Source: Botryllus schlosseri (lineage: Eukaryota). Taken from it: 64,000 bases of DNA. The stretch spans positions 25,608,001 to 25,672,000 of the forward strand of contig CM119371.1 of assembly GCA_051294905.1 (NCBI GenBank). The letters are read 5' to 3'. A model generated the notes under the pieces. That model worked only from the letters and a program-made list of their open reading frames with translations. It was not told where the DNA came from and did not search any database. A program made the translations under genes and the position numbers. This document shows positions 48,601 through 51,600 of this stretch, piece after piece (position 1 is the stretch's first letter; the number at the start of each line of letters is the position of its first letter).

Positions 48601-51600
48601 CGAATTGTAAGTGCGATAGCAATGTTGCAAATAATGATTTTCCAGTAAATCGCTTTTACGAATGCCAAAGTAAATCAGGAGCACTGATTATCCAGTAAAT
48701 TGCTTTTACAAATCAAAAAGTAAATCTGAAATACTGGTTATTCCGTAAATTGCTTCTACGAATTTAATCTGTAATTTTTTTACCCTTTAAAAATAAGTAA
48801 ATTACTTTTGACGTGCCCGTATATTAATTTAACGGGCATTTACCGTTAATATATCTGACGGGACAAATTTACCGGTATAATTTGGGTAAATCTACGAATA
48901 TTTCTAAGAGTGTAATCGATACTAGTATCAATCTATTTGCGGATGACGCTTGCCTATGGGAAACTGGCTTAGATGTAATGACAATCTCGTCAAAATTGCA
49001 GAACTCGTTAATCAACCTTTATCAATGGTGTAAAAAATGAGGTTTGCGGGTCAATGTCAAGAAGTCTGCTGCAATAATATTCACTAAACGTAGAAAACTA
49101 CCACCTGTTCAATTTTCAATAGGTATGACAGAACTACCAATAAAGAAAAGTTGTAAATACTTGGGAATTATTTTCGATTCTAAACTGACTTATCGTTTGC
49201 ACAAAGATGCTGTTGTCGAAAAATGCCTAAAAAGAATGAACTTACTACGTATGCTCAGCGGCACAACATGGGGTGCCTCCACGCCTTGCCTGCTAGCGGT
49301 CTACAGATCTATGATCCGATCGGTAATCGAGTACGGATTCGAAGCGTATTTGTTTTCACCCTTATATGTTATGAATTCGATCCAAAAAATTCAGAATACC
49401 GCTCTACGGATATGCAACGTGGCAATGAAGAGTACTCCAGCCTTCGCTCTTCAACATTACTGCGCTGAACCACCCATACCAATAAGGCATCTGCAAGCAT
49501 GCTACAATTATCGAACTGTTATAGCGTCATTGCCGAACCACCCGTGCGCAACAGTAATTGATGATTCTTGGCACGAAATTTTCCCGGACTCGACGCTATT
49601 TATGACCTTTAATATGAAAACTAGAAATGCGAATCTCATGCAAATTAATCTACAGAACCAAGTAGTAGTTCCTCTCCCGCCATGGCAGGAAATATGTTGT
49701 CGAATAGATTTGCACCTAAAATCAAGAAATGTAAAGTCTGACCTACCCACAATTGCCATGTCAAAGTGTAATCGTTACATCACAGAAATGTACTCGAACC
49801 ATGTCAAAATATATACCGATGGGTCAAAAACTATTCATCAATGTGGTGCAGCCTTCGTAGTCGAAGAAATTCAGTTTTCTCACAGCGAATCTCTTAGTAA
49901 ATATTCATCAGTATTCTCATCCGAATTAGTTGCAATTCTGCGTGGCTTAACCTAGGCAAAAGAAAATCTAGGTTCTCGAAAACTCGCCATCCTATCGGAC
50001 AGTCAAAGTGCCCTTACAGCCATTAACGCCGGCTCTACTAATAACAAACTAATATATGATATTATTCAGTTGTGCGCAGATCTCGACAGAAAAGGAGTGG
50101 AGACTAATTTGATATGGATCCCTGGCCACATGGGAGTTGGGCAAAATGAAACGGCTGACGAACTAGCAAGAGCGGCTGCATCCACGGATCACGCAGATGA
50201 CATTGGAGAATCGGTCGAACTGTCTGTTCCAGAAGTGAAAACGCTCATAGCATCCATATGCCGCGAGAAATGGATTGAATACTTCAACTCGTCACATGAC
50301 GGGTCAGCATATTACAGAATACACGCACCCATCACAGAAATTCCTGCGCCGCTGAATTTTTCACGAAGGCACTCCTCGATAATCCTTAGGTTGAAATCGG
50401 GTCATTGTCGGCTGAATTCGCATCTTTATCGTATAAAGTGCCACGAAGATGGCCTGTGTCGCACGTGCATGGCCGAAGAGACCGTCGAACACTTTCTGAT
50501 TGAGTGCCCAGTATATGCTTCTCAGAGACAATATTTGAAGAGTGCGGCAAGACGGAACCATGTCGACATGACAGTACGGGCCCTATTATCCAGTCCATAT
50601 ACAATTCAGACTGTTATTGAATTCGTATTAGCCACCCGATTAATCTAATTTTGCGGATATAATATTTTCGACGTGGTCTGGTGCACAAGACCTTAGTAGT
50701 TAAGCACCATAAACCCCACATACAACACACACCTTTTACTTTAATTTAAAGATTTTAAAAAATCTTCAAAGCGAAGTCTTAGCATGAAGTTCCAATGTTT
50801 TTACTATAGACATTTCTTTACAATCATTATTTGTATACGTTTCCTTTCAAATCTGGGAAGAGCCCCAGCAGAACCATGAAACCGCCACATGCGGTCATGG
50901 ATCCGCGAGTTGTCGACCTTTGTCCACGATAGTGACTGTAAATACATGAAATAACTGGTACTGGCTAAAAAAGCATTATACTTACTTTGATCTGCAGGAC
51001 TTGCTTCGCTTTCAGTATTAATAATGTATTTGATGATCTTGCTTCCGTGAATCTGATCCCCTGCCACAACGTTAACATAGCTACTCATAATCATTTGATT
51101 GACGTTATCACCTTCTGCCAGCGTTGCAGATCCTGGAACACATGCGAATAGGTTACTGCGAGCGATGCTTCGCTGTATATTTCGAATATGTTATACCATA
51201 TGTTGGGTCATCGACAATTATTAGAGTTTTCTTTCTTATCATTAGTTTGCGCGACGGATTATTGACATTTTTTCCAGATAACTTTACAGCGATTTCATGT
51301 TGATTATTATTACTATTATTGATTCAGCGCTTAACAAGAGCGAGGCGATTACCACAAGCGCAAAACTGAACTTCTCGATGTTCTTTTGTTTCCTGTTTTG
51401 CTTTACTCATTTTTTTAATTAACAATTGTCGATATATATTATTGATAGTAAAATGAGGTGGCGCTTATCACCCTGAACTGTCTCGTGCACCACGTGCAAG
51501 ATTTGTCGTGAACAAAGGTCAAATCGGTAGAAATACGTATCAAAAGACTAATATAGTCACATCAATCTGTGACACGAATCCACGAATGCAATAATGGCCA

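Follow-up and report, generated by a model that had tools for sequence, protein, structure and literature searches.

Organization of the gene in front of the NACHT exon

The analyzed window is a 64,000-nucleotide stretch of Botryllus schlosseri DNA, and on its minus strand lies a predicted NLR-type gene with a short leader. The features used in the model of this gene are as follows.

51901..51973, minus strand: predicted first coding exon (24 codons plus 1 nt) with a phase-1 GTAAGT donor, splicing deduced from sequence
50986..51132, minus strand: symmetric motif exon of 49 codons, phase 1/1, member of a large exon family (sequence and genome search)
51050..51127, minus strand: conserved motif core of 26 residues (column frequencies over 54 exons, codon-position test)
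40141..41601, minus strand: NACHT exon, an open frame with pre-NACHT region, NBD, HD1, winged helix and the start of HD2 (Pfam, model)
37972..38306, minus strand: candidate next exon with a phase-1 acceptor and an LRR-like stretch by eye, without a Pfam match
35647..35751, minus strand: candidate small exon with an LRR-like strand by eye, without a Pfam match
24436..24690, minus strand: candidate last coding exon
42703..50648, plus strand: LINE-type retroelement (ORF1-like, endonuclease-RT and C-terminal pieces, by Pfam) in the motif-NACHT intron, not part of the receptor

The first coding exon begins with an ATG at 51973 and runs for 73 nt to 51901. An in-frame TAA located 6 codons 5' of this ATG bounds the predicted leader, and further 5' exons that skip exon 1 are possible. 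The motif exon (51132-50986) is 147 nt long and stop-free, is flanked by an AG acceptor and a GTAAGT donor, and sits in frame between the 24-codon first exon and the NACHT exon. Because the NACHT exon (41601-40141) opens with a phase-1 acceptor at 41601, the predicted leader comes to about 73 residues. We infer from these signals that exon 1 is spliced to the motif exon and the latter to the NACHT exon. The first-pass annotation had proposed a spliced N-terminus of about 73 residues containing one symmetric phase 1/1 exon; the exon was confirmed, and the leader stands as a prediction whose boundaries and phases agree.

RNA reads from 4 of the 24 listed runs were examined over 37500-57400. Read depth was zero over exon 1 and below 1x (raw reads) over the motif and NACHT exons, with reads mostly 90-95% alike. 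The junctions 51901>51132 and 50986>41601 were absent among the 15 read joints displayed of 34 in these sparse data, and an RNA search with the NACHT exon listed no run. The local copy could be unspliced or non-functional, a silent gene with a retroelement-laden intron within a family that is real nonetheless. The 9.4 kb intron between the motif and NACHT exons does contain a LINE of 8 kb, itself interrupted by an insertion. Against this, all junction phases agree, neither the motif frame nor the NACHT frame contains a stop, and 112 loci show the same arrangement, their median motif-NACHT gap being about 9 kb, making a dead copy very improbable.

The NACHT exon resembles NOD2 and lacks a predicted death fold

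The NACHT exon matches Pfam NACHT (E=1.8e-16) and scores over the cut-off for NOD2_WH. When it was modeled whole and without the motif using AlphaFold2, the mean pLDDT was 77, and the best Foldseek match of the model was NOD2 (E=2e-16). The description of the locus as an animal NLR-type gene therefore holds. Its closest named NACHT relatives are NLRC5-/NOD2-like proteins of the ascidian Clavelina lepadiformis, at 27-30% identity. C-terminal LRRs are suggested by eye in the candidate exons, where Pfam gave no LRR match.

The NACHT exon also encodes around 120 residues ahead of Walker A, which are absent from the first-pass annotation and without a Pfam match. AlphaFold2 predicts two long and two short helices, two strands and a low-confidence loop for this region, and a six-helix death fold was not found in the model of the NACHT exon. 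Neither the 73-residue predicted leader nor the NACHT exon gave a Pfam match to CARD, PYD, DD or DED. With a short leader, no such match and no six-helix bundle, the predicted absence of a death fold before NACHT is upheld.

The motif core and the question of an internal repeat

Alignment of 54 distinct family exons gave the core pattern A-x-L-A-E-G-[ED]-N-V-x-Q-x-[FI]-x-N-S-x-V-N-V-V-A-G-D-Q-I. Two glycine turns are marked by G7 (91%) and G24 (96%), amides recur at N9 (80%), Q12 (76%), N16 (74%), N20 (83%) and Q26 (81%), and V, I or F occupy alternating aliphatic positions. The two pseudo-repeats were first described as rich in V/I/N/Q/G, which fits the family: the leader is V/N/A/I/G/Q-rich, and proline is scarce (8 of 1458 residues, about 0.6%). 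An AlphaFold2 model of the motif monomer was of low confidence (pLDDT 54), without secondary structure and thus uninformative.

The exon had also been read as two pseudo-repeats 17 residues apart, paired from glycine to tyrosine. An offset of 17 is indeed the top internal offset in both family profiles, at p~0.06 against column shuffles, and for the local copy alone the value is p~0.18. Conservation drops beyond residue 27, and therefore a half-repeat of at most 8-10 residues is supported; the 17-residue internal repeat remains borderline. The exact double pattern GD[NQ][VI][NH] proposed earlier occurs in 1 of the 54 family exons and a relaxed form (G-[DE]-amide-aliphatic, twice) in 35. The tyrosine pairing did not survive comparison, since the first aligned Tyr is present in 1 of 26 aligned members, namely the local copy.

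The motif exon is a family module

Searching the B. schlosseri genome with the motif exon returned matches for all 141 scored candidates at E<=10, 68 of them at E<=0.001, and a divergent motif query added 23 sites. Among the top 30 exons, which are 138-153 nt long, 29 have an in-phase AG, a GT donor (under a lenient donor pattern) and a length divisible by 3. NACHT exons were pooled from five genome searches of 200-224 candidates each, all lower bounds, giving at least 177. Among the NACHT exons so listed, a same-strand partner lies no more than 60 kb downstream of 130 of the 164 motif sites, compared with 10 and 1 of 164 in the control orientations. Conversely, 112 of the 177 listed NACHT exons have an upstream motif site and 65 have no detected site. 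Two upstream sites precede 18 of the 177, and some of these doubles may reflect unlisted genes; tandem motif exons were seen directly at three loci (L061, L062 and L063). Conservation among paralogs, on which the first-pass proposal had been made to depend, is thus borne out by both the number of matches and their placement before NACHT exons.

The peptide itself is what is conserved. Over the 54 exons, mismatch at first, second and third codon positions is 0.28/0.23/0.54, and pS is 0.67 with pN 0.26, the pairs in both measures not being independent. Third positions differ about twice as often, and therefore the peptide, not the DNA, is under constraint. The core is identical at 17 of 26 positions between the local gene and a distant subfamily whose NACHT identity is 24%, and at 12-13 of 26 positions in a comparison with another subfamily at 29% NACHT identity. 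By these values the motif peptide is constrained more tightly than the NTPase behind it, as would be expected if the receptors must all meet one partner or each other. The linker after the core differs in length among family members, and one exchangeable phase 1/1 motif exon precedes NACHT domains from three or more deeply diverged subfamilies. The motif is thus a real, conserved and unclassified module of signaling type on an expanded animal NLR family.

Genome-wide, the counts of at least 177 NACHT exons, at least three diverged subfamilies and about 80 caspase-domain matches represent a large innate-immune expansion.

A candidate motif-RING gene

Relative to the listed NACHT exons, 34 of the 164 motif sites are unpaired. 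When unpaired sites were fetched, two of the first three turned out to belong to NACHT genes, and a later search supplied a NACHT partner for the third. A further site, L074, is a near-consensus singleton motif exon on the minus strand at G000:C3:16440093. Downstream of it 6.5 kb was read, within which a NACHT frame was not found. Instead, a RING exon lies 5.5 kb downstream (Pfam zf-C3HC4_3, E=1.6e-10), its nearest solved structures being the MYLIP, CGRRF1 and IAP RINGs. Its phase-1 acceptor fits the phase-1 donor of the motif exon, and it closes with a stop.

G000:C3:16434353-16440173, minus strand: candidate motif + RING gene (L074 and L115; phase match, Pfam)

The locus lies in a tandem run of RING-ended genes (13 matches, C3 16.06-17.54 Mb). 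It is the only motif-RING neighbor among 164 motif sites and 36 RING matches, for which the chance expectation is about 0.007. The pair is apparently a candidate non-NLR carrier of the motif at one locus, where a nested or unlisted NACHT gene is also possible. The separate effector with the same motif postulated by the first-pass annotation has therefore acquired one candidate, with the motif in phase with a RING exon; the caspases described below do not extend it, as their motif differs.

The distribution of sites also bears on whether the motif works inside the receptor, as a hairpin packing on NACHT or LRR or as an oligomer clamp, with no separate effector; auto-inhibition and sensor-helper pairing among NLRs fall under the same reading. 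Nearly all placed sites do sit on NACHT genes (130/164), the three unpaired sites fetched first all came to NACHT genes (two directly, one later), and our search turned up no clear enzymatic effector bearing this motif. An intramolecular role is harder to reconcile with a motif that stays about 65% identical while its supposed binding surface drops to 24%, or with a linker of varying length behind the core. The NACHT exon is also modeled confidently without the motif, and one copy precedes a RING exon. Taken together, we judge a purely intra-receptor function unlikely.

The motif falls outside the RHIM and HRAM families

Membership of known amyloid motif families was examined as the first-pass annotation had suggested, and the RHIM and HRAM checks came out negative. 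Among 26 motif members there was no match to Pfam RHIM (PF12721) or HET-s at E<=10; a genome-wide search with PF12721 gave three matches, all below cut-off and none at a motif site. The RHIM tetrad [IV]-Q-[IVL]-G is present in 0 of 54 motif exons. With 0/54 tetrads and 0/26 Pfam matches, the motif does not qualify as a RHIM. The looser cRHIM core V/I-x-x-G, as defined in the available text of PMC13506858 and PMC9387487, is present: 43 of 54 exons carry a VxxG at a single, constant position, against 27% of shuffles with a VxxG anywhere. The low specificity of this core makes it too loose to define cRHIM membership.

The HRAM consensus, in the available text of PMC4518210, comprises G19, hydrophobic residues at 5, 8, 10, 16 and 18, N/Q/H at 3 and R/K at 15. 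In the 54 exons G19 is found in 52, positions 5 and 16 are hydrophobic in 91% and 93%, and position 10 agrees by half (50%). Position 8 is hydrophobic in 4% and position 18 in 6% (mostly A/G), position 3 is E/D and position 15 is N, and on these four positions the motif was rejected as an HRAM. According to the accessible part of Dyrka et al. (10.1101/2020.01.06.895854), amyloid signaling motifs are alike in length and composition but not homologous in sequence. For this reason the RHIM and HRAM failures weaken the claim that the motif is one of these, not that it works like one.

These failures would also suit a linear docking or beta-augmentation peptide that binds, without amyloid, to a folded surface on a single adaptor or enzyme common to the receptors. 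That diverged receptors conserve the motif, and that its exon is shuffled, would be explained equally well by one common ligand. Such a peptide would nevertheless be long for docking, with 26 conserved positions, several N/Q and two glycine turns, and the tandem copies and the copy beside a RING exon are simpler to explain by homotypic binding. We consequently regard docking as a rather improbable account of the motif.

Searches outside the genome returned little. The motif profile found nothing convincing outside the exon family among 1.84 billion representative proteins: of 14 matches, 12 are apparent unspliced exon frames of the family and two apparent chance, and no bacterial protein gave a significant match in that search. 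Four weak matches in a PDB sequence search with the profile were judged chance. A long-protein search, itself a weak test, returned three exon frames only. In the ESM Atlas the best value for the NLR motif was 0.82, and the caspase motif gave nothing usable. One of 26 motif members matched Pfam EAD10 (E=0.01), which is a lead only.

Caspases with their own short leader motif

A few residues after the presumed start codon, six of 18 fetched caspase N-termini carry a short beta-prone motif of the pattern I-x-[IL]-S-G-G-x-x-x-F-[QHY]-G-[PAD]-[IV]-x-[IL]-x-[VIF]. This motif occupies the place of a CARD or DED. It was found at twelve loci in all, at least two of them broken, and 5' exons are possible. 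A genome search with it gave eight matches, all eight of which are caspase loci.

L090, L092-L095, L097, L105-L108, L110 and L111, G000 genome: caspase leader loci
C4:14.32-14.40 Mb, C4:16.68 Mb and C12:13.31 Mb: caspase leader loci on C4 and C12
C9:25.79 and 16.65 Mb, C7:23.85 and 13.89 Mb, C1:25.88 Mb: caspase leader loci on C9, C7 and C1

The genes are largely single-exon and caspase-9-like, and their leaders contain glycine turns. All four catalytic domains inspected keep the SHG motif and the Q-x-C-R-G active site, and the closest relative of the one domain tested is caspase-9/CED-3. Two other caspases (L100 and L101) carry different short beta-rich leaders.

By eye the tail of the NLR motif resembles the caspase leader; this likeness was rejected, with an hhalign probability of 0.12 and profile shuffles at p 0.36-0.73. 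The NLR motif HMM had no real match in the 18 caspase N-termini, and the 34 unpaired motif sites have none of the 62 listed caspase sites within 60 kb. As the two motifs are without profile similarity, direct templating from NLR to caspase is unsupported, and therefore the two would have to be bridged by an adaptor or act in separate pathways.

A genome search for Death domains was swamped by a repeated element, and by eye none of its matches lay near motif sites. On many contigs, Death-domain frames that are nearly identical form inverted pairs, in most cases separated by 5-16 kb (for example C5:25440527/25450416, C4:18143713 with 18159766, and C11:4507177 with 4522833). Caspase-like frames of 257 residues, likewise nearly identical, are found at around 10 loci with a Death frame some 16 kb away. 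Judging by position, these repeats look like a large mobile element carrying both.

Comparison with known signaling motifs

The closest animal parallel is BF82280 of Branchiostoma floridae, described in the available text of Kajava et al. 2014 (PMC4262963) as a RHIM-NACHT-repeat protein. There, as in the Botryllus gene, a short motif replaces the death fold before an animal NACHT. The Botryllus motif differs in being without the RHIM tetrad or a Pfam RHIM match, and in that one motif leads more than 100 receptors. RHIM-NACHT in amphioxus is hence already known, while here the motif class is different and leads a large family. In the portions of these sources available, tunicates appear to be without RHIMs (PMC4262963) and without RIPK1 homologs (PMC12119088), ascidian NLRs are described without an N-terminal signaling domain (PMC11508797), and NLR-linked amyloid signaling appears specific to fungi and bacteria (PMC9815663).

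As far as the available text of PMC4518210 and PMC9815663 describes them, the fungal HRAM (NWD2/HET-S), PP and sigma motifs share with the Botryllus motif a short N-terminal position on NLRs, alternating-hydrophobic strands, glycine turns, N/Q residues and single or double copies. Compared with HRAM, the Botryllus motif clearly agrees at three of eight positions and half agrees at one, its receptor has a putative LRR-like C-terminus, and no HeLo-type effector gene is visible beside it. The bacterial BASS motifs, in the accessible part of Dyrka et al., are likewise N-terminal on NLRs, 20-30 residues long, beta-arch-like in composition and sometimes duplicated; the Botryllus motif is unlike them in having neither the G-phi-Q-phi-G signature of BASS3/PP/RHIM nor receptor-effector gene pairs. 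The cRHIMs of insects and crustaceans (PGRP-LC/LE and Imd), as presented in the available text of PMC13506858 and PMC9387487, share the loose V/IxxG, but sit on PGRPs and Imd, whereas the Botryllus motif sits on NLRs.

Clavelina lepadiformis NLRs (P0014-P0027, P0048-P0058) similarly have a short V/I/N-rich leader of about 25 residues and no death fold, but this leader gave no score against the Botryllus motif HMM. In a search with the Clavelina leader all 23 proteins (286-912 residues) were NLR-like by name or by NACHT/NLRC4_HD2. The Clavelina leader may be a separate motif of similar type. Among the texts searched, we found no literature on the Botryllus motif, its family or tunicate beta-motif caspases.

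A proposed signaling mechanism

NACHT oligomerization is established for NLRs. We lean towards the motif being a homotypic beta-stacking signaling tag, with the motif exon as the signaling end of a large ascidian NLR family built from NACHT and putative degenerate LRR. Ligand-triggered NACHT oligomerization would crowd otherwise disordered motifs, which could then stack as beta-arches in the order strand, G-E/D-N turn, strand, N-S turn, strand, A-G-D turn. From the composition, turns, tandem copies and placement of the motif, it seems plausible that such stacks would seed a cross-beta or beta-solenoid polymer. The V/I/N/G richness also fits an ordinary beta-hairpin, which counts against stacking.

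The stacked polymer may in turn recruit motif-bearing proteins such as the RING protein, as the single motif-RING locus suggests. If all receptors with the common motif recruit proteins with the same motif, one partner would therefore serve them all. The motif-RING gene is the best candidate for this role, with ubiquitin as the putative output by analogy. IAP ligases act in NOD and Imd signaling. A system of this kind would operate like fungal and bacterial NLR amyloid signaling and the cRHIMs, outside RHIM or HRAM membership.

A more far-reaching joint model is doubtful in our estimation. It would be a fungal-style amyloid immune pathway, in a chordate lineage reported to be without RHIMs and RIPK1, in which more than 100 NLRs share a new motif that nucleates a motif-RING E3, and motif caspases join on the same or a bridged fibril. 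The caspase-9-like proteases, with a second beta-motif in place of CARD, would then form an amyloid-built equivalent of the inflammasome or apoptosome.

A 26-residue motif common to more than 100 receptors would explain how ascidian NLRs signal, and it makes it possible to ask directly, and at low cost, whether amyloid is the signaling route of an animal NLR family. The RING and caspase candidates replace "no effector known" with named genes for co-expression and cross-seeding experiments.

Retroelements and transcripts in the window

The LINE in the motif-NACHT intron is interrupted by an insertion at about 46010-49040, within which a short open frame runs from 46379 to 46702. The insertion matches an abundant spliced, polyadenylated minus-strand transcript, with a joint at 46588-47585 covered by 725 reads in run X9. 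The junction reads are 90-99% alike, and therefore probably derive from other copies of the insertion. An 88-base stretch at 53444-53531 is covered very deeply by reads and shows loose ends resembling poly(A); its sequence probably also occurs at the 3' end of an abundant transcript from another locus. The remaining elements are listed below.

2272-3135: RT fragment by Pfam
21749-22870: weak zf-RVT
26059-26232: (CTA)58 microsatellite
59231-59587: what we take to be a GIY-YIG/Penelope-like piece
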